Below are positions 1,912 through 62,310 of a DNA stretch of 64,000 bases, piece by piece. Position 1 is the first letter of the stretch. Every line of letters begins with the position of its first letter. The notes under the pieces are model-generated. The model made no database searches and was not told where the DNA came from. It saw only the letters and a list, made by a program, of their open reading frames with translations. The translations under genes were made by a program, and so were the position numbers. This DNA is from a bacterium (GTDB lineage: Bacteria; SZUA-182; SZUA-191; JAJRXT01). The stretch is from contig JAJRXT010000100.1 in NCBI GenBank assembly GCA_024276125.1, positions 45,329 to 109,328 of the forward strand, given 5' to 3'.

Positions 1912-2021
1912 TGTCATTCTGATTTGTCATTCTGATTTGTCATTCTGAACGAAGCGCAGCGCAGTGAAGAATCTGCTCACGTATGCAAGTAGATTCTTCG
2001 GCCTTCGGCCTCAGAATGACG
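1912..2021 (-). repeat. Family-A nested palindrome, copy 1, left terminus tandemly triplicated
   Basis: TGTCATTCTGA occurs at 1912, 1925 and 1938. Core 1938-2020 has the GAAGAATCT/AGATTCTTC inner stem and a GGCCTTCGGCC hairpin. Confidence 0.9.
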
Positions 2022-2051
2022 GCTTAAGAACGACTCAGAGCATATCTATAT

Positions 2052-2711
2052 TTACGCTCTCTTTTTGCGTTCGATTTTTCTTTTACGCGGTTTTTCGGCG
2101 CTGGAATAATCTTTAGGCGCGCGCATAACACGCATTTTATCTAATTGTCCTAATTTCTCCAAGCGGTTATATATCCTAACCCAGGCGCATTCGCGATCAG
2201 GGTCAAGCTCGCACTTGCCGTGGTCTACGCCGCCGCAGGGACCGTTTAACAGGCCCTTGGGACAATTGGTAATAGGGCATATTCCGGCAGTTTCATTTAT
2301 AATACAGCTTCCGCATAATGAGCAATGTTCCGAAAACTGGCCGAATCGCTCTACATTACCCAAAAACAGGGTGTCATTAGCGGTATATACGGGTTTATCC
2401 ATAAATTCGGCAAAGCTCTGCGCACCTGCGCCGCAGGCCATAACTAAAAGCGCTTGCGCTGTGTCTAGTTCGGCTTTATGCTTGCGCAACTCGCGTTTCA
2501 TATTTAAGATATGGCAGGCGGATTCCCCTATAATATGCCCAGTTATTTGTTTGCCTTGCTCTTCAAGCTCTTTTTGCATATGCGCAACCTGATCCTCCCC
2601 GCCGGTCTGACACACCGTAGCGCATTCCCCGCAGCCTATTAAGAATACCCGCTGTACATCCTTTAGACAATCCAATATTTCATCTAATGGTTTTCGTCTG
2701 CTGATTATCAT
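2052..2711 (-). CDS. metV: methylene-THF reductase C-terminal-domain Fe-S/zinc protein (MetV)
   Basis: 219-aa Cys-rich ORF with the CPKGLLNGPCGG motif typical of MTHFR_C proteins. Lies directly upstream of metF. Confidence 0.75.
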   Translation of the reverse strand: MIISRRKPLDEILDCLKDVQRVFLIGCGECATVCQTGGEDQVAHMQKELEEQGKQITGHIIGESACHILNMKRELRKHKAELDTAQALLVMACGAGAQSFAEFMDKPVYTANDTLFLGNVERFGQFSEHCSLCGSCIINETAGICPITNCPKGLLNGPCGGVDHGKCELDPDRECAWVRIYNRLEKLGQLDKMRVMRAPKDYSSAEKPRKRKIERKKRA

Positions 2712-2771
2712 TTTATATTCTCCTTATTTATCTTATTCCCATGTAAATGGGGAATTATTTGCTTCTCTTTC

Positions 2772-2858
2772 TGTCATTCTTAAACGCAGCGCAAGCGCAG
2801 TGAAGAATCTGTCCCCATATGCGAGCAGATTCTTCGGCTTTCGGCCTTAAGAATGACA
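2772..2858 (-). repeat. Family-A nested palindrome, copy 2
   Basis: TGTCATTCTTA...TTAAGAATGACA termini, inner GAAGAATCT/AGATTCTTC stem, GGCTTTCGGCC hairpin. Confidence 0.9.
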
Positions 2859-2907
2859 GCAATAATAAACCCAAAAACTTACAATACTCTGTCTTTGCTT
2901 CCTGAAT

Positions 2908-3267
2908 TCATACAGGGACCCCGAGCGTTAAAACATTTTTACTGAATCTGGTTTTATGGATTTTATTCTTTTCAAACTCATGATCAGTTAAAATTATCGG
3001 GGAAATATTGGCTTGATATTGTAGGTCTATTTCATTGGCTATCTCACAGATTTTATCGCGTATCTCCCAAGTTTTTTTCTTAACTAAAATTAAAATATCA
3101 ATATCCGATTCAGCATCAAAATCACCGGTAATCTTAGAGCCGAATATTATCATCTCTACAATATTATCCCCGAATGCCTTGCGCACCTTATCTATAAAAG
3201 TTTGCACCCCATGTTTTTCCGCTGGGACTAAAAAATGTTGCGCTTTGTTGGTCATGTTTATTTTCAT
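2908..3267 (-). CDS. nucleotidyltransferase domain protein (solo MNT)
   Basis: Motif IIFGSKITGDFDAESDIDILILV. No HEPN partner ORF; the downstream 196 nt hold a Family-A repeat instead. Confidence 0.7.
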   Translation of the reverse strand: MKINMTNKAQHFLVPAEKHGVQTFIDKVRKAFGDNIVEMIIFGSKITGDFDAESDIDILILVKKKTWEIRDKICEIANEIDLQYQANISPIILTDHEFEKNKIHKTRFSKNVLTLGVPV

Positions 3268-3362
3268 GTTTCTGTCTTAACTGACTTGTTGTTTAGGAAT
3301 TTCAAAATTGGTAGTCGGGCCAGTCCCTTAAGCCCGACCCCTGACGGCCAATGCTGTTTAGC

Positions 3363-3448
3363 TGTCATTCTGAGGCCGGAGGCCGAAGAATCTACCCGCA
3401 TACTGGAGTAAAGATTCTTCACTGCGCTCCGCTTCGTTCAGAATGACA
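3363..3448 (+). repeat. Family-A nested palindrome, copy 3
   Basis: TGTCATTCTGAGGCCGGAGGCCGAAGAATCT...AGATTCTTCACTGCGCTCCGCTTCGTTCAGAATGACA. Confidence 0.9.
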
Positions 3449-3494
3449 AAATAGGGGTTTTCAGACTTTTTACGAAACCGACTAGATAGTATTG

Positions 3495-5075
3495 TTAATT
3501 ATGTTTTAACTGAAAAATTATCTCCGAATAAGGCGATTTATCCCTTTCCGTTCTATTTAGCACCGGTCTTTTAAACCGGTTTACAATTTTAAGCTTAGAT
3601 TTATCGGCAATTTGGGGATAAAGGTTATTTTTATCATTAGCTACTAAGAATATATCAAAATCATCCGCTAAATATTTCCTGCAATTTATAAGTACGGCTG
3701 AGATTCCTTCAATATAAGAGCGTTTTGCCTCCAGAGCGCGTCCTTTGTATAAAGGGCCTATTTCCAGATCATCTTGCCGTATAAAGCCAAAAAGATCATA
3801 GGCATAGGCATGCTGCCTGTGATAGTCAATCTGCCCTACATATGGCGGGGAGGTGAATATACCCTTTATTTTATTTTTCTGATATATTTCGTATAATTTT
3901 TCATCTTTATCTTTAATTTCATGCTCAAGATTGATTGTTCTTGAATCTGCCGATATGACCAAAGAACGGGCATCTGTTTTTAAATTCTTAAATTCTCTAA
4001 GCCGCCTAATTGTGTCGTTAGCATATCGGTTAAACCAATATTTAACTGAAAACAGCGGCTTACAGATTTTTTTATGCTTCCAGCAATAATAAGTTGTAAG
4101 CTGCGGCTCCTTTAATGTAGCTAAATCAGAATGAGTGGTAGCCCTGCATGAGCGTATAGTTCTGCTTAAAATTACAGCTAATGCCTGCCTATTTTTTATA
4201 TCAGTATTTTTTTTAAGCAGACTAAAAACAAACTCTATTTCTTTGCGGACATTTTTTATATACCATTTATCCAAAAAAGTTTTGTTATTATCCTGTTTAA
4301 GCTCTATTTTATATTTGTTTATTAAATCATTATAAACATTTAAAAATAACTGTTCTTTATCTATCGCATATTTAGTCTCATCAATTTCGCCTTGATAAAC
4401 CCTTCTTTTAAAATCCGGTCCCGGAAAATATTTCCGATTGAATTTTTGTAATTCACCGGAAAGCTCTTTTTCAAAAGACGATATATTTTCATTTGCTTCA
4501 AATAAAGCAACAGCTTTTTGAATCCGCCTTAATTCTTCAGCTAAATTATCCAGTTCATAATCAAATAATTTTACCTGCGCAATCATACAATTAAATTTTG
4601 AAATATCAATACCAATACTATGAATACCCAATTCATTCGCCTGAACTAATGTTGTACCGGAGCCTGAAAAGGGGTCTAAGATTATATCTCCATTTTTTAA
4701 ATATGTTGCCTTCTTAAAATTATCAGTATGATCATCTATAAAATAGTTAACTAGTTGAGGAATAAATTTACCTTTATAAGGATGCAGTCTATGAACGTGT
4801 TTAGTGGTATCCTTTTCGCACAAATTATCAAAAGAAAGCGCCCAGTTCAGATCATCTCCCAATCTCTTTTTCCATGTTAATTCACGTTGACCGTTGTAGG
4901 ACTTATAATATTGCTTAAGCTCAACAATATTAACCAAGGGAGAACCATTATCACCATATTTTTGCAGCTTCCCGTATTGAACCAAATAGGAAATATTGGA
5001 TATGGTAATGTTTTTATTTAAATATCCCGCCGCCCATAGGCTGGCTTGTTTTAAGGTAACTAATTGTTTGGTCAT
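3495..5075 (-). CDS. orphan DNA methyltransferase (N6-adenine/N4-cytosine type)
   Basis: 526-aa ORF. HPYKGKF...DPFSGSGTT AdoMet-binding block in the N-terminal third and the catalytic TSPPY motif near the C-terminus. Visibly AT-rich. No adjacent endonuclease ORF. Confidence 0.75.
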   Translation of the reverse strand: MTKQLVTLKQASLWAAGYLNKNITISNISYLVQYGKLQKYGDNGSPLVNIVELKQYYKSYNGQRELTWKKRLGDDLNWALSFDNLCEKDTTKHVHRLHPYKGKFIPQLVNYFIDDHTDNFKKATYLKNGDIILDPFSGSGTTLVQANELGIHSIGIDISKFNCMIAQVKLFDYELDNLAEELRRIQKAVALFEANENISSFEKELSGELQKFNRKYFPGPDFKRRVYQGEIDETKYAIDKEQLFLNVYNDLINKYKIELKQDNNKTFLDKWYIKNVRKEIEFVFSLLKKNTDIKNRQALAVILSRTIRSCRATTHSDLATLKEPQLTTYYCWKHKKICKPLFSVKYWFNRYANDTIRRLREFKNLKTDARSLVISADSRTINLEHEIKDKDEKLYEIYQKNKIKGIFTSPPYVGQIDYHRQHAYAYDLFGFIRQDDLEIGPLYKGRALEAKRSYIEGISAVLINCRKYLADDFDIFLVANDKNNLYPQIADKSKLKIVNRFKRPVLNRTERDKSPYSEIIFQLKHN

Positions 5076-5086
5076 TGTATTTTAGT

Positions 5087-5347
5087 TTATCTTCTGTAAA
5101 TATCCCGCCGATGCCTTACCCGCATTATCCTGACTAATTGTTTATCCTCTTTGATTTCATATAGTACCCTATATTCACCTATCCGAATGCGCCAATCATT
5201 CTTTTTTGAACCACTGATTTTACAACAGCCTGTAGGTCTTGGGTTTTGGGCTAAGTCTTTAATATGAGTAATAATGCGAAAAAAATATTTACTGGATAGA
5301 CGTCTAAGGTCCTTCTCTGCCGCCCGTTCCAAATATATTTCATACAT
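5087..5347 (-). CDS. RelE/ParE family toxin
   Basis: 86 aa, MYEIYLERAAEKDLRRL...WRIRIGEYRVLYEI pattern. Overlaps the upstream antitoxin by 8 nt. Confidence 0.75.
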   Translation of the reverse strand: MYEIYLERAAEKDLRRLSSKYFFRIITHIKDLAQNPRPTGCCKISGSKKNDWRIRIGEYRVLYEIKEDKQLVRIMRVRHRRDIYRR

Positions 5348-5549
5348 GCGGTGAATACTCTGTCAGAAAGTCTTCCAGTTTCCTAAACTTAAGCGGTTCT
5401 TTGCGCATCTCTTCTAACAGCTTTAAATCATCTATATCCGCCAGACGCTCCAGCATTTCTTTATATTCATCTATATCCAGAATTACCCTTACTGCTTTAC
5501 CATTGCGAAAGATAATTTCCGGTTGTTTTGTTTTGATTTTTGCTTCCAT
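5340..5549 (-). CDS. Phd/YefM-like antitoxin
   Basis: 69 aa, ...IIFRNGKAVRVILDIDEYKEMLERL.... Translationally coupled to the RelE/ParE toxin. Confidence 0.65.
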   Translation of the reverse strand: MEAKIKTKQPEIIFRNGKAVRVILDIDEYKEMLERLADIDDLKLLEEMRKEPLKFRKLEDFLTEYSPHV

Positions 5550-5554
5550 AGCAT

Positions 5555-6007
5555 TTACCTCGCTTTGTTTTGCTGCACCCCTTGTACAAAATCATTAATC
5601 AGTTCTTCAAATCTGTCTAAATCAATCAGATTATCCTTTAGAATCCGGCAGACTCTATTATCATCTACCTCGCCATACATATGTACCAATACATTACGAA
5701 AACGAGCCATTTCTTGTAGGTTGCGGGCAAATTTTTTATCTACAATACCCAAATTGGCAAGTTGTACAAAACAATCGGCATAATCCTGTGGCGCCCGAGA
5801 CTCAGATTTAGCCACAATATGATAACAAATATCAATAGCAGCCTGAACAGCTATTATCAGATTATATTTTATTAAGTCTAATTTTTGTTCATCAGCCAAA
5901 AGCTCATCAACCGTAAACACAGCTAATCTTCTTAGCTTGCCTCGAGCCTTGTGCAAATCTCCCATTAAAGATACAAGGCGGTTTATGTTAATTTTGGCGT
6001 TGTGCAT
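5555..6007 (-). CDS. hepT: HepT-type HEPN toxin (DUF86)
   Basis: 150 aa with the R-x4-H motif (RFRNVLVHMY). 1-nt overlap with the upstream MntA-like gene. Confidence 0.8.
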   Translation of the reverse strand: MHNAKININRLVSLMGDLHKARGKLRRLAVFTVDELLADEQKLDLIKYNLIIAVQAAIDICYHIVAKSESRAPQDYADCFVQLANLGIVDKKFARNLQEMARFRNVLVHMYGEVDDNRVCRILKDNLIDLDRFEELINDFVQGVQQNKAR

Positions 6008-6432
6008 TATTTCTCCAGCATTTCCTTTAAAAAGCGTCTCATCGTAGGCAATTGGTCAAAATACAGGCTCCAGATTATACCCACAACATACGCCCGCATC
6101 TCATCATCGCGGCAGGTTAGAATCTTACCGGTAGTTATATGATATTTAAAGCCTATTGGCGCATAATTTAATACTTTGGCGTCAATCGGCAGCTTGATTT
6201 TTTCTTCCAGCGCAGCGCTTAACCTGAAACCATAGAATAGCGCATCATCCTGCGATACTTGCTTCTCATCCACATATACCGCTACATCCACATCGCGGAA
6301 ATATCTGCCATCCACAAATGAGCCGTGCAGGTAGGAAAAGATTATCTCTTTACGCTGCGCCAGTCCTGCTTTAAGCTGGCTGATAACCGCATCTTTCTGC
6401 GCCTTGGTAAATGTTTTGGGTTTAATCATCAT
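6007..6432 (-). CDS. mntA: MntA-type nucleotidyltransferase antitoxin
   Basis: Motif YLHGSFVDGRYFRDVDVAVYV. Start moved to MMIKPK (6432) because the ORF-track N-terminus runs into a repeat hairpin. Confidence 0.75.
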   Translation of the reverse strand: MMIKPKTFTKAQKDAVISQLKAGLAQRKEIIFSYLHGSFVDGRYFRDVDVAVYVDEKQVSQDDALFYGFRLSAALEEKIKLPIDAKVLNYAPIGFKYHITTGKILTCRDDEMRAYVVGIIWSLYFDQLPTMRRFLKEMLEK

Positions 6433-6492
6433 ATTACATAAGCGTGTCTTAAAGACCAAAGAAATCATTAAGGACAACACATACCTATAATT

Positions 6493-6517
6493 GTTTCGGC
6501 TTGAGACAAGCCGAAAC
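6493..6517. repeat. Family-B hairpin (GTTTCGG...CCGAAAC), single
   Basis: GTTTCGGCTTGAGACAAGCCGAAAC, perfect 11-bp stem. Confidence 0.85.
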
Positions 6518-6538
6518 ATCGAAGAACTCTTTTTAGCC

Positions 6539-6622
6539 TGTCATTCTGAGACTGGAAGCCGAAAAATCTGCTCGCATACGTAGGTAGATTCTTCACTCCA
6601 CTCCGTTTCGTTCAGAATGACA
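6539..6622 (+). repeat. Family-A nested palindrome, copy 4
   Basis: Termini, inner stem and central GCTCGCATACGTAGGT segment all present. Confidence 0.9.
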
Positions 6623-6699
6623 AAGTTAAAACCTATTATAGAAACATAGACCCCAAAACACAATACTGTTGACTTAAGGTGAATAGCTCTTAATTGGCC

Positions 6700-6786
6700 T
6701 GTCATTCTGAGGCTGGAGGCCGAAGAATCTCCCCCCGCAGCAACAAGTAGATTCTTCATTTCGCTTCGCTTTCATTCAGAATGACA
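6700..6786 (+). repeat. Family-A nested palindrome, copy 5
   Basis: Preceded by module CACAATACTGTTGACTTAAGG (6659-6679). Termini and inner stem intact. Confidence 0.9.
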
Positions 6787-6819
6787 GCTACAGAAAACAT
6801 TTTTATGTCGAATTTAAGG

Positions 6820-7665
6820 TTACATAATCGCATGACGCATGGTATCTACCGGCGCTTTTTTACCCGTCCATATTTCAAAGGCTGCCGCCCCCTGATAGAT
6901 CAGCATACCCAGCCCGTTTAATATACTTGCGCCCTTTAACTGCGCCTGCTCCAATAACTTGGTTTTAGCCGGATTATAGATCAGATCGCATACCAATTGC
7001 CCCGCATGCAGGGCATCCGTACTTATCGGCGGATTATCATCTGCTTTTAATCCTATAGACGTACAATTTATTATAATATCAGCCTGCCCGATAACATCGC
7101 TTAAATGTTTACCTGAAAGCCCCAAATAATGTATATCAGAGCCATTATACGCCCGCTTCAGCCTATCGGCTAGTTCCTTGGCCTTGCTTATGGTGCGGTT
7201 GGCTATGCTTATACAGCCGGCGCCGGCTGTTGCCAGAGATATACCCAATGCCTGAGCCGCGCCGCCGGCGCCTATCAACAAGATATTTTTTCCGCATACA
7301 TCTATTCCCGCATCCGCTTCTAATGAGGATACAAAACCACGCCCGTCGGTATTATAACCGATAAGGCGTCCGTCTTTGTGTAAGATAGTATTTACCGCTC
7401 CCAAAAGTCCTGCTTCTTCGGTTAATTCATCCAAAAAGGGGATCACCTTTTGCTTGTGCGGTACGGTTATATTAACCCCGGCCATATTTAGAGCCCGAAT
7501 ACTCTCCACAGCCTGCCCCAGCTTATCCGGCGCCACCTGAAACGGTAAATATATATAATCCAATCCCAATTGCCCAAAAGCCGCATTGTGCATCTTCGGC
7601 GAATACGTATGCCCTATAGGATAGCCGAAAATTCCCGCAACTTTTGTCTGCCCGCTTATTATCAA
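6820..7665 (-). CDS. aroE: shikimate dehydrogenase
   Basis: 281 aa. GIFGYPIGHTYSPKMHNAAF and GAGGAA NADP-binding motifs. Confidence 0.85.
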   Translation of the reverse strand: MIISGQTKVAGIFGYPIGHTYSPKMHNAAFGQLGLDYIYLPFQVAPDKLGQAVESIRALNMAGVNITVPHKQKVIPFLDELTEEAGLLGAVNTILHKDGRLIGYNTDGRGFVSSLEADAGIDVCGKNILLIGAGGAAQALGISLATAGAGCISIANRTISKAKELADRLKRAYNGSDIHYLGLSGKHLSDVIGQADIIINCTSIGLKADDNPPISTDALHAGQLVCDLIYNPAKTKLLEQAQLKGASILNGLGMLIYQGAAAFEIWTGKKAPVDTMRHAIM

Positions 7666-8783: not shown

Positions 8784-8803
8784 AAGCGATAAATCTCTTC
8801 AAT

Positions 8804-8875
8804 GTTTCGGTTTGTCCTCAAGCCGAAACCACTAAGTGCGTCTTTTAACAGTTTCAGCTTGAGGACAGGCCGAAA
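8804..8875. repeat. Family-B hairpin doublet (subfamily B2)
   Basis: GTTTCGGTTTGTCCTCAAGCCGAAAC, a 21-nt linker, then GTTTCAGCTTGAGGACAGGCCGAAAC. Confidence 0.85.
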
Positions 8876-8892
8876 CATTGACTTAAGGTCAC

Positions 8893-8977
8893 TGTCATTC
8901 TGAATGAAGCAAAGCGGAATGAAGAATCTCTCCAGCAATAGCAGGCAGATTCTTCGGCCTACGGCCTCAGAATGACA
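8893..8977 (-). repeat. Family-A nested palindrome, copy 6
   Basis: Termini and inner stem intact. GGCCTACGGCC hairpin at the 3' side. Confidence 0.9.
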
Positions 8978-9777: not shown

Positions 9778-9800
9778 CTGTTATTCTAAACGCTTTTGCC

Positions 9801-9884
9801 TGTCATTCTGAGGCCGCAGGCCGAAGAATCTGCTTGGGTATGCGGGTAGATTCTTCACTCCACTCCGTTTCATTCAGAATGACA
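9801..9884 (+). repeat. Family-A nested palindrome, copy 7
   Basis: TGTCATTCTGAGGCCGCAGGCCGAAGAATCT...TTCAGAATGACA. Confidence 0.9.
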
Positions 9885-10290: not shown

Positions 10291-10377
10291 TGTCATTCTT
10301 AAACGAAACGAAGTGGAGTGAAGAATCTCCTCGCTATTGCGGGGGGAGATTCTTCGGCCTCCGGCCTCAGAATGACA
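10291..10377 (-). repeat. Family-A nested palindrome, copy 8
   Basis: Termini and inner stem intact. Flanked by the 50-bp module AAATGGCTATTG...TTTAATTTTATTAGC (10240-10290). Confidence 0.9.
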
Positions 10378-12068: not shown

Positions 12069-12216
12069 TGTCATTCTGGGCAAAGAGGCTGTATCGTAAC
12101 CGCTTAAAATCTGAAAAATGCTCTCAACACCGTCATTCTGAATAAAGCGAAGCGGAGTGAAGAATCTACTCGCTGTTGCGGAGGCAGATTCTTCGGCCTA
12201 AGGCCTCAGAATGACA
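12069..12216 (-). repeat. Family-A copy 9 (12131-12216) with a 52-bp type-2 mini-element in its left terminus
   Basis: TGTCATTCTG (12069-12078) and CGTCATTCTG (12131-12140) flank the insert 12079-12130. Confidence 0.8.
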
Positions 12217-14523: not shown

Positions 14524-14607
14524 TGTCATTCTTAAGGCCAAAAGCCGAAGAATCTGCTCGCATACGAGGACAGATTCTCACTCCACTCCGTTTCGTTCAG
14601 AATGACA
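14524..14607 (+). repeat. Family-A nested palindrome, copy 10
   Basis: Termini and inner stem intact. Followed by the 53-bp module 14608-14660, which recurs at 26823-26875 (51/53 identical). Confidence 0.9.
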
Positions 14608-22894: not shown

Positions 22895-22959
22895 GTTTCG
22901 GGGCGTCTCACCCAAAAACGCGCCTGCGGTGAGCAAATCGTTTCGGCCTCAGAATGACA
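22895..22959. repeat. Family-B doublet truncated and fused to a Family-A right terminus (A fragment 11)
   Basis: The first hairpin is complete. The second stops after GTTTCGG (22940-22946) and continues as GGCCTCAGAATGACA. Confidence 0.75.
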
Positions 22960-26742: not shown

Positions 26743-26822
26743 AGTCATTCTTAAGGCCGGAGGCCGAAGAATCTCTCAGCCTACGAAGGTAGATTCTTCA
26801 CTCCGTTTTGTTCAGAATGACT
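26743..26822 (+). repeat. Family-A nested palindrome, copy 12
   Basis: AGTCATTCTTAAGGCCGGAGGCCGAAGAATCT...TTCAGAATGACT; slightly degenerate termini. Confidence 0.85.
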
Positions 26823-28923: not shown

Positions 28924-29032
28924 GAAACAAACTCCTTAAAATTATTAAATGGCTACTAGAGTTGATGGTATCGTAAAAAGTCTAAAAAAGTTCTTTTATG
29001 TTTCTATAATAGGTTTTATGTTTGTCATTCTG

Positions 29033-29116
29033 AACGAAGAGGAGCGCAGTGAAGAATCTACCAGCGTATACTTACAGATTCTTCGGCCTACCGCCTTAGA
29101 ATGACAACTATAGATA
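29033..29116 (-). repeat. Family-A nested palindrome, copy 13
   Basis: Preceded by the module TATGTTTCTATAATAGGTTTTATG (29007-29030). Confidence 0.9.
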
Positions 29117-29240: not shown

Positions 29241-29323
29241 TGTCATTCTGAGGCTGAAAGCCGAAGAATCTGCTTGCTATGCGGGAAGATTCTTCATTTC
29301 GCTTTGCTTCATTCAGAATGACC
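29241..29323 (+). repeat. Family-A nested palindrome, copy 14
   Basis: Flanked by ACTATAATGAAAAGCTTTTCTTAGCC on the left and CTTAAGTCAACAGCATTG on the right. Confidence 0.9.
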
Positions 29324-32269: not shown

Positions 32270-32322
32270 CCTCGCATACGCAAGCAGATTCTTCACTCCA
32301 CTTCGTTTCGTTCAGAATGACA
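32270..32322 (+). repeat. Family-A partial copy 15 (right half only)
   Basis: ...CTCGCATACGCAAGCAGATTCTTCACTCCACTTCGTTTCGTTCAGAATGACA; the left arm is absent. Confidence 0.8.
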
Positions 32323-33430: not shown

Positions 33431-33577
33431 AATGCTGTTGACTTAAGGTAGCTGTCATTCTGAACGAAACGAAGTGGAGTGAAGAATCTGTCCTCGTATG
33501 CGAGCAGATTCTTCGGCCTACGGCCTCAGAATGACAGCTAATAAAAGACTTTTAAGCTTAAGTCAACAGTATTGGGG
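33431..33577. mobile_element. composite MITE-like unit: CAATGCTGTTGACTTAAGG inverted repeats enclosing Family-A copy 16
   Basis: Left AATGCTGTTGACTTAAGG (33431-33448), right CTTAAGTCAACAGTATTG (33557-33574). TTTAAACAC is present on both flanks. Confidence 0.5.
33453..33536 (-). repeat. Family-A nested palindrome, copy 16
   Basis: Termini and inner stem intact. Confidence 0.9.
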
Positions 33578-35463: not shown

Positions 35464-35529
35464 TGTCACCCTGAGTGAAGCGAAGGGTCTGCTTGCGTAG
35501 GTTGAAAGATTCTTCGCTTCAGAATGACA
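35464..35529 (-). repeat. Family-A degenerate short copy 17
   Basis: TGTCACCCTGAGTGAAGCGAAGGGTCT...AGATTCTTCGCTTCAGAATGACA. Confidence 0.7.
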
Positions 35530-43465: not shown

Positions 43466-43552
43466 TGTCATTCTGAGGCCGAAGGCCGAAGAATCTCCCC
43501 TCCCGTATGCGAGTAAGATTCTTCACTGCGCTTTGCTTCGTTCAGAATGACA
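43466..43552 (+). repeat. Family-A nested palindrome, copy 18
   Basis: Termini and inner stem intact. Confidence 0.9.
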
Positions 43553-48318: not shown

Positions 48319-48574
48319 ATGTTTCGGTTTGTCTCAAGCCTAAACATAAAAACCGTCACCCTACCACGAAAATAAACCGCATAACTTGTTGAAAAAAAGG
48401 GATTCCAGCCTTCGCAGGAATGGCCGATTAAAGACAATTTCTAGGTTATAAGCAATTAAAACACCGTCTCGAAGCAAAGGGTCTAGCTTACATAAGCCGA
48501 TGAGATTCTTCAGGCTTACCGTGTTTTTTGGGTGAAACGCCCCCAAAACATAACCTTTAGCCTTAAGAATGACA
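48319..48574. repeat. nested repeat cluster: degenerate B hairpin, type-3 hairpin element (48354-48425), type-2 arm, degenerate Family-A copy 26 carrying an internal B hairpin
   Basis: ...TTCCAGCCTTCGCAGGAATGGCC, GGTTATAAGCAATTAAAACAC, GAAGCAAAGGGTCT...AGATTCTTC...GCCTTAAGAATGACA. Confidence 0.7.
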
Positions 48575-53720: not shown

Positions 53721-53804
53721 TGTCATTCTGAACGAAGCGAAGCGCAGTGAAGAATCTACATACATATGCAAGTAGATTCTTCGGCCTACGGCTTCAGAAT
53801 GACA
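53721..53804 (-). repeat. Family-A nested palindrome, copy 19
   Basis: Termini and inner stem intact. Confidence 0.9.
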
Positions 53805-53943: not shown

Positions 53944-54028
53944 TGTCATTCTGAACGAAGCGGAGCGCAGTGAAGAATCTCCTCCTATATAGCGAGTAGA
54001 TTCTTCGGCCTTCGGCCTCAGAATGACA
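53944..54028 (-). repeat. Family-A nested palindrome, copy 20
   Basis: Flanked by inverted CAAGTTGCTACCTATAGG / CCATAGGTAGCAACTTGG modules. Confidence 0.9.
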
Positions 54029-56051: not shown

Positions 56052-56062
56052 GGAACTGTCAC

Positions 56063-56149
56063 AAAATAAGTTGAGCATTTTAACGCTAAGATTTAGCTTA
56101 GATTCAGACGATTTGATAAAAGCAAAATTATCGAATTAGCGCTACTAGT
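56063..56149. repeat. Family-F ~90-bp repeat, copy 2
   Basis: Matches 47827-47917. Starts 12 nt after the hdrA2 stop. Confidence 0.8.
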
Positions 56150-56181
56150 ACATTGTTTCAATAAAATGTATACATTTCTTT

Positions 56182-56266
56182 TGTCATTCTTAAACGAAAT
56201 GAAGTGGAGTGAAGAATCTGTCTGCGTATGCGAGTAGATTCTTCGGCTTATCGCCTCAGAATGACA
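56182..56266 (-). repeat. Family-A nested palindrome, copy 21
   Basis: Termini and inner stem intact. Confidence 0.9.
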
Positions 56267-56308
56267 GCGTATGATAAGATTTCTAGCAAAGTTTAGGAGT
56301 GCGGTTTA

Positions 56309-56536
56309 ATGGCAAAAGATATAGTATCTGATATTCCTCCTGTTCTTTTAAATCAGTTGGATAAAATGATTAAGGATGGTCTTTATAAAACCAGAGTCGA
56401 AGCCATAAGGGAAGGGATAAGACTGCTTGTCCGAAAACGTGAAGTCAAGCGTTTAAGAGAAAAAATTAAAGAGATTAAACTTAATACCAAACACCTTCCA
56501 AATCTAAGCCAAGCAGTAGTAGAACAACATATATAG
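56309..56536 (+). CDS. ribbon-helix-helix (CopG-like) protein, probable antitoxin
   Basis: 75 aa. LDKMIKDGLYKTRVEAIREGIRLLV RHH pattern. Confidence 0.6.
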   Translation: MAKDIVSDIPPVLLNQLDKMIKDGLYKTRVEAIREGIRLLVRKREVKRLREKIKEIKLNTKHLPNLSQAVVEQHI

Positions 56537-56548
56537 GAGGTGGGTTTT

Positions 56549-56743
56549 ATGCCAATTCCAGCTATACAAGGGATTTGTCATAATGGCAAGATAGAAGCAT
56601 TAGAAGATATACCATATAAGGAAGAGAAAAAAGTTTTAATCATTTTTTTGGATGATACAGAAGATAAAGCATGGGATGAAGCGGTTGCCGAAGATTTTTT
56701 GAAAGGATATTCAAAAAACGATGCAGCCTATGACAAACTATAA
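56549..56743 (+). CDS. DUF104-like small antitoxin
   Basis: MPIPAIQGICHNGKIEALEDIPYKEEKKVLIIF. AGGAGG RBS upstream. Overlaps the mazF-like start. Confidence 0.5.
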   Translation: MPIPAIQGICHNGKIEALEDIPYKEEKKVLIIFLDDTEDKAWDEAVAEDFLKGYSKNDAAYDKL

Positions 56744-57056
56744 ACACGGGGATATATTATTGCTGAATTTCCCCTATAGCGAAGGGAATAGAAAAGCCAA
56801 AAGACCAGTATTAGTCTTAGCCCAAACAGACAAAGAAGATATTGTAGTGTCAAAAATAACCACTGCCGGACAAAGGGGTAATTATGATATTATTATAAAC
56901 GATTGGAACAAGGTCGGGTTGTTGTACCCCTCTGTCATAAGAATAGATAAACTGGCCACTCTGTCTAAATCCAGAGTTATCAAAAAATTAGGCTGCCTAA
57001 GTGACTCCTGTTCCCCCAAGGTAAAGCTTAAGCTAAAAAAATTGTTCAATTTATAG
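56721..57056 (+). CDS. MazF/PemK family toxin
   Basis: 111 aa. GDILLLNFPYSEGNRKAKRPVLVL...SVIRIDKLATL pattern. Confidence 0.7.
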   Translation: MQPMTNYKHGDILLLNFPYSEGNRKAKRPVLVLAQTDKEDIVVSKITTAGQRGNYDIIINDWNKVGLLYPSVIRIDKLATLSKSRVIKKLGCLSDSCSPKVKLKLKKLFNL

Positions 57057-57127
57057 TTGGCTTTTTAAGCGATATAGACTGGTGTAGTTTTTAATAATAC
57101 TAGAACAACAAGAAAAGTGGAGAAGCT

Positions 57128-57532
57128 ATGCAAAGCGAACCCCGTATTATAGGTTTTTTATGTAATTGGTGCTCTTATGCTGGCGCCGATATGGCCGGTA
57201 CCAGCCGGCTTAAGCAGCCGGCAAGCGTACGTATTATCCGCCTGCCGTGTACCGGCAGGATAAATCCGCTCTTACCGCTTAAAGCGCTGGTGGACGGAGC
57301 AGACGGCGTATTGATTTCCGGCTGTCACCCGGGTGACTGCCATTATCGCGAGGGCAATTTATACGCCAGACGCAGGCTGGAGCTGCTGCATCGTTTCCTG
57401 CCATTTGTGGGTATTGATCCCAAACGCCTGCGCTACGTCTGGGTTTCCGCATCAGAGGGACAGCGCTGGCAAGCTATTGTAGGCGAGTTTACCGAGCAAA
57501 TAAAAAAACTGGGAACTGCTAAAGCTCAATAA
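57128..57532 (+). CDS. mvhD: MvhD/FlxD-like [2Fe-2S] electron-transfer protein
   Basis: 134 aa. IIGFLCNWCSYAGADMAG...LPCTGR...ISGCHPGDCHY motifs. Confidence 0.85.
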   Translation: MQSEPRIIGFLCNWCSYAGADMAGTSRLKQPASVRIIRLPCTGRINPLLPLKALVDGADGVLISGCHPGDCHYREGNLYARRRLELLHRFLPFVGIDPKRLRYVWVSASEGQRWQAIVGEFTEQIKKLGTAKAQ

Positions 57533-57559
57533 TTTGGCTTTTTCAAGGAGATATAATAA

Positions 57560-58528
57560 GTGAAAGATATCCTGGCAGAACTTAAGAAAAAAGCAGCCGA
57601 AATTTTACCCGAAGTAAGCTATTTTATCTGCTATGGGAGCGGGTTTGACCTATTGCATAGCGCCCCTTTGTTTGTTAAAGATAAAGGCGATATAGACAGG
57701 CTGGTTTTAAACCGTTTTTGTATACATAATTTGACCAGCTATCTTCCGCCTCAAAAATGGCCGCCAGGCTGGCTGCTTGAGCCGGGAGAAAAGATTGGTC
57801 TGGTTCTTAAAGGGTGTGATTCCAGATCGGTTATTCATTTGCTTGCTGAAAAGGCAATTCTCCGCAGTCGCGTAATTATCATAGGACTGCCCTGCTGGGG
57901 AATGATTGATGTTAATAAATTGCGTAATAGAATTGATATTAACCGCATAAATCGTGTTGAACAGGACAAAGAAAGTATCATGCTCTTTACTGATGCTAAT
58001 GAAGTATCGGCTGATATTAAGGATATATTGTATGATAAGTGTATAAATTGTCAATATCCCAATACGCTGATTTCCGATCATTTTATCGGCGCAAAAAAAG
58101 AGCCGGACAAAGGTGTGCAGCCATTCGGCAAGGTACTGGAATTAGAGCGGATGAGTTTACTTGAGCGTTCTGCGTTCTGGGATAAGGAGTTTGCCCGCTG
58201 CATTCGCTGTAAGGCCTGCCGCAATGTTTGTCCGGTATGCTATTGTCAGAATAATTGCTTACTGGATACCAGAGTGCCTCATTGGATAAAAGAGCGGGTT
58301 GATGCAAACAGCAACCGCTGGTACCATCTTATTCGGGCGTTTCATCTGGCCGGACGCTGCACGGAATGCGGCGAATGCGCACGGGTTTGCCCTATGCGCA
58401 TACCGATTAATCTGTTAGCCATGAAAATGAACAGCGAGTTATTTGAGCTGTTTGGCTTCCGTTCGGGGATAGATGTGAATATAAAACCACCGCTTATGAC
58501 CTTTCAGTTGGAAGAAGACAAGTTGTAG
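57560..58528 (+). CDS. iron-sulfur protein, FlxC-like
   Basis: 322 aa, GTG start. CIRCKACRNVCPVCYC and CTECGECARVCP clusters. Confidence 0.6.
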   Translation: MKDILAELKKKAAEILPEVSYFICYGSGFDLLHSAPLFVKDKGDIDRLVLNRFCIHNLTSYLPPQKWPPGWLLEPGEKIGLVLKGCDSRSVIHLLAEKAILRSRVIIIGLPCWGMIDVNKLRNRIDINRINRVEQDKESIMLFTDANEVSADIKDILYDKCINCQYPNTLISDHFIGAKKEPDKGVQPFGKVLELERMSLLERSAFWDKEFARCIRCKACRNVCPVCYCQNNCLLDTRVPHWIKERVDANSNRWYHLIRAFHLAGRCTECGECARVCPMRIPINLLAMKMNSELFELFGFRSGIDVNIKPPLMTFQLEEDKL

Positions 58529-58564
58529 CGGCTCGGGGTCAGGGACGACTACCAGAACATAACC

Positions 58565-58648
58565 TGTCATTCTGAGGCCGGAGGCCGAAGAATCCGCTCG
58601 CATATGGGATTAGATTCTTCACGCCACTTCGTTTCGTTCAGAATGACA
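58565..58648 (+). repeat. Family-A nested palindrome, copy 22
   Basis: Termini and inner stem intact. Lies between flxC-like and flxB-like genes. Confidence 0.9.
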
Positions 58649-58720
58649 GCTATCTTAAGTCAACAACATCGGGGTCGTCTCTGACTTCGATGACCGGTAG
58701 ACTATATAGAGGATAAAGAT

Positions 58721-59761
58721 ATGCCGAAGGCTATAATGCAGGATAAATTAAATGATTGGCTGGATTCTATTGCCAGTAAATACCAGTTGTGGGCGCCTCA
58801 GGATAAAGACGGCGCTTGTCTGCTTTCTCCGTATACACCCGGAGCGCCGGTTAATCTTAAATGCAGGCCGCAGCTTTCAGCCAAAAAAGCGCTCTTTCCT
58901 CAAACTGAATGCCTGCTTAAATATCAGTATCATAAAGACAAAAGCAAGCCGGAGGAAACCGAGCTTAGCATAAGCGCCGCTAACCCCAACCAAAAAACAG
59001 TAATTTGGGGTATAGCGCCATGCGATGTATCCGGGATTTCTTTTTTTGAGAATGTATTTATCGGTGCGGGTTATCAGGACACTTATTTTAAAACCCGCCG
59101 CAGCAATACTCTGATTGCAGCTATAGCTTGCCAACATGCTGAGAGTACCTGCTTTTGCGAGGCTGTAGGAGGTTCTCCGGTAAGCGCGCCTGATGCTGAT
59201 CTGCTGCTTACCCGCATTGACCATGAATATGTTGTTGAGGCTCTTACTAACGAGGGCGCTACCCTGATAGACGAGGGTTTGTTTACTACAGTGGAAGAGG
59301 CCAAATTAAATGCTATGCAGCAAGTCAAGGAAGCCGCTTTAAGTAAGCTTTCAAAACCATTTGAATTAGGCAGTTTGCCGTCTGTGGCCGATAAATTTTT
59401 AAAGGCATTTGAATCGCCCTATTGGAAAGAGGCCACCGCCGCTTGTCTTAGCTGCGGTATCTGCACCTTTGTCTGTCCTACGTGTTATTGCTTTAATATT
59501 ACCGATGAGGCGCAAGGTATGCACGGGCAGCGGCTGCGCTGCTGGGATGCTTGTATGTTTTCTACTTACACCTTGGAGGCCAGCGGTCATAATCCGCGTA
59601 ATATAAAGTTTCAGCGCTATCGCAACAGACTGAGTCATAAATTCAGCTATCTCATTACCAATAATAATGTATTAGGCTGTACAGGCTGCGGTCGATGTAT
59701 TAAAGAATGCCCGGTGGGTATTGATTTGCGCTCTATAATAAGCCATATTTTAGCCGAATAG
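58721..59761 (+). CDS. 4Fe-4S dicluster protein, FlxB/AsrA-like
   Basis: 346 aa. CLSCGICTFVCPTCYC and CTGCGRCIKECP motifs. Confidence 0.65.
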   Translation: MPKAIMQDKLNDWLDSIASKYQLWAPQDKDGACLLSPYTPGAPVNLKCRPQLSAKKALFPQTECLLKYQYHKDKSKPEETELSISAANPNQKTVIWGIAPCDVSGISFFENVFIGAGYQDTYFKTRRSNTLIAAIACQHAESTCFCEAVGGSPVSAPDADLLLTRIDHEYVVEALTNEGATLIDEGLFTTVEEAKLNAMQQVKEAALSKLSKPFELGSLPSVADKFLKAFESPYWKEATAACLSCGICTFVCPTCYCFNITDEAQGMHGQRLRCWDACMFSTYTLEASGHNPRNIKFQRYRNRLSHKFSYLITNNNVLGCTGCGRCIKECPVGIDLRSIISHILAE

Positions 59762-59794
59762 ATTACTATATCTTTCTATAATAGGTTTTAAGGT

Positions 59795-59878
59795 TGTCAT
59801 TCTGAGGCTGGAAGCCGAAGAATCTCTCAGCCTACGCGAGCAGATTCTTCACTGCGTTTCGCTTTGTTCAGAATGACA
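59795..59878 (+). repeat. Family-A nested palindrome, copy 23
   Basis: Preceded by the TATCTTTCTATAATAGGTTTTA module. Confidence 0.9.
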
Positions 59879-59896
59879 ACTAGAAGGGGATGATAA

Positions 59897-60760
59897 ATGA
59901 TAACTAATGGCAAGAAATACGAAGGTCCCGGCGGGAATCCTTATATACCGATGCTGGCTACGGTAACAAAATTATATTCGGAAACGCCCAATATTAAATC
60001 CTTACATGTAGTTTTAGATGACAAAGAACAAATGAAACATGTTTCTTTTGAGCCGGGTCAAGTAGCGCAATTATCCTTATTTGGTTCAGGCGAGTCCACC
60101 TTTGTAATAAACTCTTCTCCTTTGGCAAAAGAACATTTACAATTTACTATCATGAAGACCGGAGAGGTAAGCGGCGCTTTTCACGACTTATCCGAAGGGG
60201 CAAAAATCGGTCTGCGCGGTCCATTGGGTAATTGGTTTCCTTATCAGCATATGGAAGGTAAAAATATTGTTCTGATTGCAGGCGGCTTGGGGCTTGCTCC
60301 CTTACGGCCTTTTATGTTTTATCTTTTGGCTAACAGACATAAATATAAAAACATTCAGCTTATTTATGGCGCCCGCAGTCCGGGTGATTTATGTTACAGC
60401 CAAGACTGGACAATTTGGAGGGAGCATGATAGCAAGGTAAAAATCACCTTAACTATTGATCGCGATGTACCCGGCTGGGAATACAAAGTGGGGTTTGTTC
60501 CTACTATAGTAAAAGAGGAAGCCCCGTCGGCAGAAAATACCATAGCGGTCACCTGCGGTCCGCCGATTATGATAAAATTTGTGCTGCAAGAGCTTGAAAA
60601 ATTGGGCTTTGCCCCTGAGCAGATTTATACCACTTTAGAGCGGCGGATGAAATGCGGGTTGGGCTTATGCGGACGCTGTAATATAGGCCCTAAATATGTC
60701 TGTATCGACGGACCGGTATTTTCACTTGCGGAATTAAAGGCTTTACCCAATGAGTTATGA
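59897..60760 (+). CDS. FAD/NAD(P)-binding oxidoreductase with C-terminal [2Fe-2S], FlxA/AsrB/PyrK-like
   Basis: 287 aa. Ferredoxin-reductase fold (LIAGGLGLAPL) and a C-terminal CGLGLCGRC...C cluster. Confidence 0.7.
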   Translation: MITNGKKYEGPGGNPYIPMLATVTKLYSETPNIKSLHVVLDDKEQMKHVSFEPGQVAQLSLFGSGESTFVINSSPLAKEHLQFTIMKTGEVSGAFHDLSEGAKIGLRGPLGNWFPYQHMEGKNIVLIAGGLGLAPLRPFMFYLLANRHKYKNIQLIYGARSPGDLCYSQDWTIWREHDSKVKITLTIDRDVPGWEYKVGFVPTIVKEEAPSAENTIAVTCGPPIMIKFVLQELEKLGFAPEQIYTTLERRMKCGLGLCGRCNIGPKYVCIDGPVFSLAELKALPNEL

Positions 60761-60955: not shown

Positions 60956-61138
60956 ACAAATTATAGATATTTGTATAATTATGTTTAATTATCTCTTTAT
61001 GTTCCTGTATAGGAAATTATAAAATTTTGACAATCGTAACTATCAGAAATTATTAGGTAAAATTTGTATCAAAGTGTTGTGCATTTAGTTTTATCAGCTA
61101 GTTAGGTATAACTATCGGATTTTAAACGATAAATATTA

Positions 61139-61192
61139 ACCACAGAGATTCACAGAGGTTTTTTTGTTAATTCTCTGTGTACCTCTGTGGTT
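61139..61192. repeat. 54-bp inverted repeat built from CACAGAG units
   Basis: AACCACAGAGATTCACAGAGG-TTTTTTTG-TTAATTCTCTGTGTACCTCTGTGGTT. Confidence 0.65.
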
Positions 61193-61286
61193 AAATTATG
61201 TTTTTGTTCTTTTGAAAATCATTGTTTATGATCTCGTTAAGTATAATTTAACCTGAGTTCTATGTTTCTATAATAGGTTTTATAGC

Positions 61287-61312
61287 TGTCATTCTGAGGC
61301 CGTAGGCCGAAA
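61287..61312 (+). repeat. Family-A partial copy 24 (left arm only)
   Basis: TGTCATTCTGAGGCCGTAGGCCGAAA, after which similarity is lost. Confidence 0.75.
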
Positions 61313-61395
61313 CTTTTGTGACTGTAAGGATTCTAAAAATTCGACAGTCTGGCAGGCGTCAGATTTTTTGAATCTGACGTCACAAATAAACTTAT

Positions 61396-61463
61396 GTTTC
61401 GGTATGTCCCATGCCGAAACACCTAGCGGTGAGCATTGGTTTCGGGGTGAGACACCCTGAAAC
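61396..61463. repeat. Family-B hairpin doublet (B1)
   Basis: GTTTCGGTATGTCCCATGCCGAAAC, an 18-nt linker, then GTTTCGGGGTGAGACACCCTGAAAC. Confidence 0.85.
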
Positions 61464-61551
61464 ATAAACATAACAAGACACTTCAAAACATAAAAGGCAA
61501 ACTTTTGCTCAAATTAATTCCCGAATTATTCGGGTAAAGAGGTGATCCAAT

Positions 61552-61953
61552 ATGAAAACACGGGATATAATGACCAAAGATGTAGTAATGGTGGATGAGA
61601 ATGTCAGTGTAGCCAAGGCTATGAGTATTATGACAAAAAATAATGTTAGCAGTTTAATTGTAAATCGGACAAATGAAGATGATGCTTATGGTATTGTAAC
61701 CAGACGGGATGTAGTAAATAAAGTTGTATCTGAAGATAGTGACCCTCTAAAACTTAAAGTAGCCGATATAATGACCAAACCGGTGCTTACCATTTCACCG
61801 AATTTATCTATACAGCATGTGGCCAAGCTGATGGTACATACCGGCGTGCGTCGTATGCCGGTATTCGATGGACATAGAACTATAGGTATCGTATCAAATA
61901 GCGATATTTTCCGGGGTTTTTACCGATATTTGAATGATGAAGATGAGTTTTAA
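61552..61953 (+). CDS. CBS domain pair protein
   Basis: 133 aa with two CBS repeats (IMTKDVVMVDENVSV..., IMTKPVLTISPNLSI...). Confidence 0.75.
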   Translation: MKTRDIMTKDVVMVDENVSVAKAMSIMTKNNVSSLIVNRTNEDDAYGIVTRRDVVNKVVSEDSDPLKLKVADIMTKPVLTISPNLSIQHVAKLMVHTGVRRMPVFDGHRTIGIVSNSDIFRGFYRYLNDEDEF

Positions 61954-62082
61954 GTTAATCTCGAATAACCTCAAAAACAATCAAGGCTTACGTAAGCCAT
62001 AATATATCATATAGGGGGTAGGTTTTAAACCTACCCCCTCCTTGGGAAGGGACAAGTCCCAATGTTATTGATTTAAGGAAAT

Positions 62083-62310
62083 TGTCATTCTGAACTAAGA
62101 GGCTGTGTCGCAACCGGAAAAACTGCTTTTTTTCTGTCATTCTCACGAAGGTGGGAATCCATAACTTCTTGAAAAAGCTGGGTTCCTGCCTTCGCAGGAA
62201 TGACAGATTGAGAGCATTTTTCAGGTTATAAGCAGTTGTAACACGAAGCGCAGTGAAGAATCTACCTCCATACGCGAGCAGATTCTTCAGCCTCCGGCTT
62301 CAGAATGACA
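62083..62310 (-). repeat. Family-A copy 25 split by a 149-bp insertion (62096-62244) that itself carries a 71-bp type-3 hairpin element (62135-62205)
   Basis: TGTCATTCTGAAC | TAAGAGGCTGTGTCGCAACC... [TGTCATTCTCACGAAGGTGGGAATCC...GGTTCCTGCCTTCGCAGGAATGACA] ...GGTTATAAGCAGTTGTAACAC | GAAGCGCAGTGAAGAATCT...TTCAGAATGACA. Confidence 0.8.

Follow-up and report, generated by a model that had tools for sequence, protein, structure and literature searches.

Prokaryotic repetitive extragenic palindromic sequences (REPs) fall into two super-families, GTAG-tagged and CGTC-tagged (Di Nocera, De Gregorio & Rocco 2013, BMC Genomics 14:522; PMC3733652). A CGTC-tagged REP has an unpaired 5′ CGTC, which is TGTC in many repeats and may also be CCTC, a stem that starts with A-T and T-A pairs, and a short 3′ tail with the consensus CCA. 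These repeats occur mainly as head-to-head dimers with the tags outside, often as heterodimers and sometimes nested in other palindromes; they have been found in five phyla, have no associated transposase gene, and include dRS3 of Neisseria (the NIME unit) and RPE-4 and RPE-6 of Rickettsia. The described families, CGTC-1 to CGTC-4, have an 8-9 bp stem and a 4-5 nt loop, and their intragenic copies encode peptides such as VIPAKAGI, VMPGLDPGIH and similar (PMC3733652). In Neisseria, the dRS3-containing repeat NTS (CGTCATTCCCGCGMAVGCGGGAATCYRG) is bound and cut by SsnA, a 94-aa single-domain GIY-YIG protein that acts on single-stranded DNA (ssDNA) only, on one strand only, and does not bind RNA (Chenal et al. 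2025, Nat Commun 16:2388; PMC11893778). Binding depends above all on the C just 3′ of the palindrome, and cleavage on the three bases 5′ of the palindrome; the NTS/SsnA pair modulates transformation, and Ssn homologues across phyla are flanked by related SRM motifs in an arrangement resembling an insertion sequence (IS). Here, we describe a repeat of about 85 bp that is dispersed through the window, a 64,000-nucleotide stretch of contig JAJRXT010000100.1 from an uncultured, deep-branching bacterium. The element is non-coding, non-autonomous repeated DNA and a structural variant of the CGTC/TGTC-tagged REP dimers, which lies outside the published SRM motif and is massively expanded in the source genome.

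With at most one mismatch, the 11-mer end of the element, TGTCATTCTGA, is found at 50 sites in the window (both strands counted), against 0.75 expected from dinucleotide-preserving shuffles. When forward ends are paired with reverse ends at distances of 55-110 bp, 20 complete elements result, each 80-87 bp long, and a profile built from the full copies adds about 9 truncated or variant pieces, bringing the total to about 29 pieces in 64 kb, or about one copy per 2.4 kb (Table 1). The dispersed palindromic repeat put forward in the original prediction is therefore real, and it is wholly intergenic: the 29 pieces overlap the open reading frames (ORFs), which cover 80% of the window, by 0 bases, an outcome with a chance of about 7e-21 under random placement into a window that is 20% non-coding. 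Together, the pieces make up 16% of this non-coding DNA. A copy is present in 22 of the 56 spacers, and the median spacer length is 324 bp with a copy versus 55 bp without one. Both of the orientations reported earlier are present, in a ratio of 10:10 among full copies, independently of the strand of the surrounding genes, and no bias of orientation relative to gene strand or GC skew was found in the window. Copies also sit inside operons, between co-oriented genes. The gene names first given to these neighbours (metV, metF and hdr/flx-like) are backed by Pfam, which supports MTHFR at 910-1851, a MetV-like protein at 2052-2711 and Hdr/Flx-like genes at 48857-60760, and the repeats account for the unusually long spacers in the metVF, por and hdr/flx operons of the source genome. 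Pairwise identity among copies averages 78.5% and reaches at most 90.8%; because no two copies are identical and their flanks are unique, an assembly artefact, against which the original prediction had wished to guard, is not credible.

The consensus, TGTCATTCTGA-GGCCgnaGGCC-GAAGAATCT-(16-20 nt)-AGATTCTTC-AcTnCgCTtcGcTTcgT-TCAGAATGACA, came out on re-derivation as it had first been read, with an inner repeat (GAAGAATCT/AGATTCTTC) that is nearly invariant across the window copies. The element is a head-to-head dimer, tags outward, of two TGTC-tagged hairpin arms around a spacer of 16-20 nt. From the outside in, each arm consists of a (T/C)GTC tag, ATTCT, GA, an inner segment, GA, AGAAT and C; as ATTCT is complementary to AGAAT, each arm is itself a hairpin. 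On its own strand, the arm folds into a 5-bp ATTCT/AGAAT stem, a tandem G.A mismatch and a mini-hairpin closed as C-GNA-G, after which comes the conserved C. The inner segment is GGCC-GNA-GGCC in the short arm and, on the other strand, AC-GAA-RC-GNA-GY-GRA-GT in the long arm, where it is likewise centred on a C-GNA-G turn. The GTC of the tag and the ATTCT are found in 40 of 40 window arms, the tag being TGTC in 35, CGTC in 2, AGTC in 2 and GGTC in 1. The C after AGAAT is kept in essentially all of them, with a tail of CT in most and CC in one; the CCA tail is not retained in full. In the GGCC hairpin, the 3-nt loop, earlier taken to vary freely, is GNA in 17 of the 20 copies once these are oriented, TTC, TAC and TCC being the reverse complements of GAA, GTA and GGA. 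The oligonucleotide d(GCGAAGC) and the d(cGNAg) motif are classic unusually stable DNA mini-hairpins (Hirao; Bevilacqua). A GNA inner loop is seen in 170 of 241 arms from other genomes and in 26 of 33 window arms, and the C-G closing pair in 196 of 241 and 24 of 33, respectively; GCGAAGC is the commonest inner segment among the foreign arms, and GCGCAGC, GCGGAGC and ACGAAGT are also among the most frequent.

The integrity of the single arm is borne out by covariation in the 1.7 Mb of loci retrieved from other genomes, from which every match to GTCA-N4-GA-N7-GA-N4-TC was collected. There are 172 matches against about 3 expected at random, and the two N4 blocks are complementary in 161 of the 172. 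Among 42 distinct arm sequences, changes on both sides are seen at 6 of 7 pairs, and 92% of cells are paired against 82.5% after shuffling, a value that 0 of 500 shuffles reach; slid registers give 23-54%. Other complementary cores (TCCT/AGGA, TTCC/GGAA, CCCT/AGGG, TTTC/GAAA, TGCT/AGCA and TGTC/GACA) are carried by 16 arms, and at least 7 elements, including the one at 35464-35529 of the window, combine two differing arms, each of which is self-complementary. These compensatory changes within arms, together with the chimeric elements, indicate that the intra-arm hairpin is the conserved unit, and two independent hairpin arms joined by a spacer describe the element better than the nested palindrome of the first account. 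The check for compensatory substitutions that had been proposed at the outset thus finds them inside single arms in loci from other genomes, the window by itself giving no covariation.

Compared with the CGTC-tagged REPs, the window arms share the terminal (T/C)GTC tag, the AT-initial stem and the C-initial 3′ tail. The dimers, too, are alike: 20 of 20 full copies are head-to-head, heterodimers occur, ORF overlap is zero and no transposase is adjacent, spacers are foldable, some dimers lie inside other palindromes, copies are placed between co-oriented as well as convergent genes, and the distribution extends over several phyla. In contrast to the described repeats, the stem in the window consists of 5 bp, a tandem G.A and a further 2-4 bp, and carries either a GNA triloop or a purine-rich insert of 17 nt; the arms are separated by a short spacer of 16-20 nt, the density is at the upper end, the host belongs to a deep-branching uncultured lineage, and the strings encoded by this arm class are VILSEAKNL/CHSERSEES. 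As judged from the sequence, the repeat therefore has the superfamily layout of CGTC/TGTC-tagged REPs, and none of the families CGTC-1 to CGTC-4 fits it. The original prediction did not recognise the family; the arms have the defining layout of a kind of repeat described in 2013 (PMC3733652), and its comparison with the Neisseria NIME was apt, NIME being built from dRS3 units, which are tagged REPs of the same superfamily. It had also held that a match to an already described family would remove the novelty, and in this respect the outcome is divided, since the kind is described, while the element has no match in Rfam or to the published SRM motif. At the gathering threshold, Rfam returned only a tRNA in the window, and at E ≤ 10 over 1800-15000, which holds ten copies, it returned nothing on any copy; a literature search by sequence strings of the element found nothing relevant. 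Correia elements have 26-bp terminal inverted repeats (TIRs), a TA duplication and an IHF site, and enterobacterial BIMEs are built from GTAG-type REPs. The window repeat resembles both in its comparable density, its placement within operons and its mosaics with other repeat modules, and differs from the former in having no TA or other duplication.

The arm type is widespread. The pattern TGTCATTCTGA-N55-80-TCAGAATGACA, sought in 185,579 species genomes, gave at least 119 loci, whose hosts include Acidobacteriota, Chloroflexota, Bacteroidota, Ignavibacteria/Chlorobi, Planctomycetota and Verrucomicrobiota, as well as Bacillota, Hyphomicrobiales, Desulfobacterota, Omnitrophota, Melainabacteria and others, and the arm type is present in at least 10 phyla. 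A metagenome scan with the inner repeats gave at least 120 loci of 28-62% GC from other organisms, and blastn of the window against those listed found no match. A viral contig collection held only 9 matches, so carriage by phages is rejected and the element is essentially chromosomal. Copy numbers vary enormously between genomes. No entry of the protein collection exceeds 70% identity to the ProRS of the source bacterium; by this protein, the closest relatives that bear a name are metagenome-assembled genomes of Schekmanbacteria and of Desulfobacterota-like bacteria, at about 60%. In four syntenic loci from the closest relatives (64-70% amino acid identity, 80 kb in total), no copy of the element was found. 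The spacer between the ProRS and FGE-sulfatase genes measures 569 bp in the window against 3-4 bp in two of these relatives (L122 and L123), and the MazG/radical-SAM spacer, which holds the element at 12131..12216 in the window, is 69 bp long and element-free in another (L121). Since the syntenic relatives are free of copies, the repeats were gained in the source lineage. An XerC/D-like recombinase of the window is also present in a syntenic relative.

Elsewhere, the same arm type brackets a nuclease gene. Six-frame translation of all retrieved loci (about 1.7 Mb), searched with generic GIY-YIG queries, revealed only two GIY-YIG ORFs, and both are directly flanked by TGTC-tagged arms. The two proteins are about 100 aa long, carry PF01541 only and are 43% identical to each other. 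In Mucilaginibacter calamicampi (locus L019), the gene (3460-3790) has a complete TGTCATTCTGA dimer on each side, at 3346-3442 and 3793-3890, and in locus L222, the gene at 7321-7616 lies inside an outward-tagged pair of arms (7259-7283/7633-7667), forming a 411-bp unit with nothing else inside. A profile of the two proteins retrieved 5,711 relatives at E ≤ 1e-10, and three out of three that were looked up are bracketed by arms: the L222 locus from two other samples (L244), a locus of M. yixingensis (L246) and the set L247-251, whose loci hold arrays of dimers. Downstream of the gene in L247/L249, at 1400-2560, at least 5 tandem heterodimers, each made of a GTCATGCTGAGGNACGAAGCATC arm and a GTCATCCTGAGCGNCAGCGAAGGATC arm, follow one another with a period of about 99 bp. 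The resemblance to the Ssn/SRM pairing extends to the arms themselves, for those of the window keep GTC before the palindrome (40/40) and C after it (essentially all) in oriented flanks of the form CGTC-AT...AT-C, and the single-domain GIY-YIG gene of about 100 aa is bracketed elsewhere in an IS-like manner. It differs in that the SRM motif misses the window arms and that the window is without an ssn-like gene.

Taken together with the published work on SsnA, these analogies suggest that the element is probably a gene-less, head-to-head pair of Ssn-type recognition hairpins for a small GIY-YIG nuclease encoded elsewhere. The arm would fold when DNA becomes single-stranded, in replication, repair or DNA uptake, and a cognate Ssn-like nuclease, which the source genome presumably encodes at another site, would then bind the folded arm and cut it a few bases outward of the tag. 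Units of the arm-gene-arm kind would represent the autonomous-looking form, and the 85-bp dimers their gene-less derivatives, which may have been copied and multiplied in the source lineage and would persist only between genes, where they are harmless. A bolder and decidedly tentative extension is that arms with the tandem G.A and the GNA turn form a pan-bacterial, Ssn-related branch with its own clade of GIY-YIG proteins of about 100 aa, in which L222-like units would be minimal autonomous ssDNA transposons and the 85-bp dimers offspring comparable to miniature inverted-repeat transposable elements (MITEs).

Several observations weigh against the proposal of Ssn-type recognition hairpins. The published SRM motif, HGTCWYN(0-2)YYVSBRHN(0-5)WNVSBRGN(0-2)RNCYNB, an expression that does match the canonical NTS, has 0 sites in the window, which places the arms outside the set tested for Ssn. 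No GIY-YIG gene, intact or decayed, was found in the 64-kb window by Pfam analysis of substantial ORFs or by tblastn. The association with GIY-YIG genes comes from four independent loci, of which three belong to Bacteroidota-like genomes; the assignment of the flanked proteins reaches PF01541 and not the level of cd10448, and the copying of repeats by Ssn is itself only a hypothesis in the literature. As for the fold, covariation within the window is uninformative, with near-invariant arms and an RNAalifold term of 0.1. In nearest-neighbour DNA folding, the whole element prefers a long inter-arm structure (-22.6 kcal/mol, z = -7.8), and isolated arms fold weakly or non-significantly. Because the window arms are nearly invariant, intra-arm and inter-arm pairing are indistinguishable from the window alone.

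Four other explanations were considered, and each is contradicted by at least one test. REPINs (Bertels & Rainey 2011; Nunvar et al. 2010) are reportedly inverted pairs of GTAG/GTGG-tagged hairpins whose partner is a RAYT, a HUH-type Y1 transposase of the IS200/IS605 superfamily. The window element has the same general architecture, as a 5′ tetranucleotide tag with an imperfect hairpin, in inverted pairs around a spacer, non-autonomous and in many extragenic copies without target-site duplication; both systems have hundreds of such copies, a presumed ssDNA intermediate and a single-copy, repeat-flanked partner gene. Mobilisation by a RAYT is nonetheless very unlikely, as the tag is (T/C)GTC and the flanked genes encode GIY-YIG proteins, whereas REPINs have GTAG/GTGG and Y1; the CGTC REPs are moreover reported without association to a transposase gene (PMC3733652), and Pfam finds no Y1_Tnp in the window. 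A phmmer screen of the retrieved loci identified two Y1 genes, confirmed by Pfam, that carry repeats of their own, namely GTAGGGGCGTGATTTATCGCGCC in L067 and hairpins of the GTCCCTTTAGGGAC type in L065, and one of the two is flanked by a textbook GTAG REP. The RAYT or IS200-type partner that the original prediction had suggested seeking is thus unsupported, since the Y1 genes are flanked by other repeats and the GIY-YIG genes by TGTC arms. These RAYT/IS200-like genes, each bracketed by its own REPs, lie at 5000-6000 of L067 (Chloroflexia) and at 5700-6800 of L065 (Ignavibacteria), and their occurrence in genomes that bear TGTC arms shows that GTAG-type and TGTC-type systems coexist in the same genomes. 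Also at odds with the data is the idea of a classical MITE, that is, an internally deleted IS of a DDE transposase with 11-bp TG...CA terminal inverted repeats, which we regard as highly improbable. The ends do read TGTCA...TGACA, and the size of about 85 bp and the density recall Correia-type MITEs, but the borders of the 20 copies show no target-site duplication of any length, with flanks that sometimes extend the palindrome (TAGC/GCTA) or are part of further repeated modules, and changes in the outer repeat are matched by changes in the arm's own inner repeat, a covariation not predicted by a TIR model. Neither the 119 nor the 120 loci listed have a common transposase nearby, and none is present among the substantial ORFs of the window (Pfam); around the 119 genome loci listed, within 400 bp as well as over whole loci, no recurrent family of neighbouring genes was found, only spurious read-through ORFs.

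Alternatively, the element might work chiefly as a structure in transcribed RNA, for instance one that stabilises mRNA, offers a processing site to an RNase or serves as an attenuator within operons, with its spread being secondary. Copies between co-oriented operon genes are almost certainly transcribed, the fold of the whole element is very stable (z = -5 to -8), and REPs affect mRNA decay (PMC3733652). This reading is distinctly unlikely in view of the equal orientations relative to transcription (10:10), the lack of a U-tract after the hairpin, of any terminator-flagged copy in 1-20 kb and of any Rfam match even at E ≤ 10 (over 1800-15000), and of loops that are C-G-closed GNA triloops, an unusually stable DNA motif, and not GNRA/UNCG tetraloops, as would be typical of RNA; the arm unit also flanks nuclease genes elsewhere, and SsnA does not bind RNA (PMC11893778). 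RNA-level side effects of copies on the operons may still occur. Selection could instead maintain the element as a DNA site serving the host, with no mobility of its own, for gyrase, IHF, nucleoid proteins, recombination hot spots or the control of transformation. Strongly conserved arms with drifting spacers (mean identity 78.5%, no identical pair) fit long persistence under constraint, and NTS/SsnA does modulate transformation in Neisseria (PMC11893778). Such a role on its own seems unlikely, given that syntenic relatives lack any copy, that copy numbers differ so widely between genomes, and that fragments, nested copies and tandem partial duplications look like the decay of selfish DNA.

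Table 1. Copies and fragments of the repeat in the window. Strand is the one on which the short arm (GGCC-GNA-GGCC) comes first.
Feature	Position	Strand	Remark
Two extra tandem copies of terminal 13-mer TGTCATTCTGATT	1912..1937	.	abut copy 1938-2021
Full element	1938..2021	-	between metV-like and metF genes
Full element	2772..2858	-	both ends CTTAA variant
Full element	3363..3448	+	
Full element	6539..6622	+	
Full element	6700..6786	+	second in spacer shared with 6539..6622
Full element	8893..8977	-	
Full element	9801..9884	+	
Full element	10291..10377	-	nested in larger palindromic module AAATGGCTATTGA...TCAATAGCCATTT
Lone tag and half stem (TGTCATTCTGG)	12069..12091	+	fused to repeated module also at 62083-62104
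Full element	12131..12216	-	between MazG and radical-SAM genes
Full element	14524..14607	+	in larger palindromic module as at 10291
Truncated short arm (TGTCATTCTGAGGCCGAAAC on minus strand)	22941..22959	-	
Full element, long arm shortened	26743..26822	+	in 569-bp ProRS/FGE-sulfatase spacer
Full element	29023..29106	-	
Full element	29241..29323	+	inverted CAATGYTGTTRACTTAAG modules on its flanks
Half element: spacer and long arm	32271..32322	+	
Full element	33453..33536	-	best family-model match
Chimeric dimer, 66 bp	35464..35529	+	left arm compensated ACCCT/AGGGT (TGTCACCCTGAGTGAAGCGAAGGGTCT); right arm shortened ATTCT type
Full element	43466..43552	+	after porB-like gene
Degenerate copy	48470..48574	-	short arm holds nested hairpin of second repeat family
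Full element	53721..53804	-	after hdrA-like fusion gene
Full element	53944..54028	-	second in spacer shared with 53721..53804
Full element	56182..56266	-	after second hdrA-like gene
Full element	58565..58648	+	between two Fe-S genes
Full element	59795..59878	+	end 18 nt ahead of start codon at 59897
Truncated short arm (TGTCATTCTGAGGCCGTAGGCCGAAAC)	61287..61311	+	
Lone tag and half stem	62083..62104	+	fused to module also at 12069
Single arm, other type: TGTC-ATTCTCAC-GAAG-GTGGGAAT-CC	62135..62160	+	closer to Neisseria NTS
Element without outer end of long arm	62241..62310	-	

At one end of the copy at 1938-2021, the terminal 13-mer TGTCATTCTGATT is tandemly triplicated (1912-1948), which may be the footprint of replication slippage or of repeated cleavage. 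The single arm at 62135-62160 has a Watson-Crick/wobble stem and a 4-nt loop and is nearer to the canonical Neisseria NTS/dRS3 than the main family is, so that a second arm class coexists in the source genome. Two further readings of the hairpins were dropped. A hammerhead-like interpretation of CUGA-GGCC-GAA-GGCC-GAAG fails on the missing UGA of the catalytic core and the absence of an Rfam match. As for terminators, no T-tract follows the hairpin and a terminator scan picked up no copy in 1-20 kb, in keeping with the earlier statement that copies lying within operons cannot all have this function.

The spacers that bear copies are BIME-like mosaics. A second palindromic family, ATGTTTCGGGGTG-(AGAC/TCTC)-CACCCCGAAACAT, of about 23-35 bp per copy and without tag or T-tract, occurs at 6494, 8805, 8852, 9910, 14966, 26956, 27169, 29125, 34410, 43378, 45736, 53679, 53850, 61397 and 61440; its pattern TTTCRG-N9-14-CYGAAA has 15 matches against 0.14 expected. 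It often adjoins the 85-bp element, is once nested in an arm (48470-48574) and is likewise absent from the four syntenic loci (80 kb) of the relatives. The module TATGTTTCTATAATAGGTTTTA stands 4 nt outside the TGTC tag and flanks the copies at 6539, 22941, 29023, 59795 and 61287, while GCTAATAAAATTAAACAGCTTTGGTTTCGCAAG, inside the larger palindrome AAATGGCTATTGA...TCAATAGCCATTT, flanks those at 10291, 14524 and 26743, and inverted pairs of CAATGCTGTTGACTTAAGG bracket those at 8893, 12131, 29241, 33453, 53721 and 58565.

Among the genes of the window, YicC is split by an in-frame TAA at 33038-33040 (ORFs 32444-33040 and 33047-33361), the POR alpha subunit by a TGA at 38414-38416, a conserved position (38165-38416 and 38426-39346), and an FGE-sulfatase paralogue is in two pieces (62347-63153); these split genes could be pseudogenes, sequencing errors or cases of recoding. 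The por operon (34528-43291) and the hdr/flx-like operon (48857-60760) are interrupted by toxin-antitoxin genes of several types (HEPN/MNT pairs, PIN, MazF, ParE and HepT), which are also found at 179-998, 2908-3267, 5087-6519 and 45273-45689. The window holds at least 6 HEPN- or HepT/nucleotidyltransferase modules, and an island of DNA methylase and toxin-antitoxin genes at 2772-6786 is bounded by elements. At about 32.1-32.4 kb, a sign change of the GC skew coincides with a switch of the genes from the minus to the plus strand. A replication origin or terminus would fit this switch, as would a simple divergent junction; no dnaA was found in the window, and the orientation of the elements is unbiased on either side of it.

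How CGTC-type REPs multiply has been an open matter since 2013, and the Ssn work of 2025 provided a protein that binds and cuts them and no copying mechanism. To this, the present analysis adds a structurally different arm, with a tandem G.A and a GNA mini-hairpin, that is present in at least 10 phyla, brackets GIY-YIG genes in an IS-like manner and is missed by the SRM motif, and it shows that such an arm class can bloom to fill about 16% of one lineage's intergenic DNA and yet be missing from syntenic relatives. The arm class explains common spurious 'hypothetical proteins' of metagenomes, such as those with ...CHSERSEES... or ...RFFASLRMT... strings, widens the pairing of Ssn proteins with repeats and offers many natural variants for studies of ssDNA nuclease specificity. 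If L222-like units were indeed ssDNA transposons, a GIY-YIG nuclease would itself be the transposase or would drive one, and REP-type repeats would have a third route besides RAYTs; the source genome, in which copies number one per 2.4 kb, would lend itself naturally to demonstrating GIY-YIG-driven transposition.

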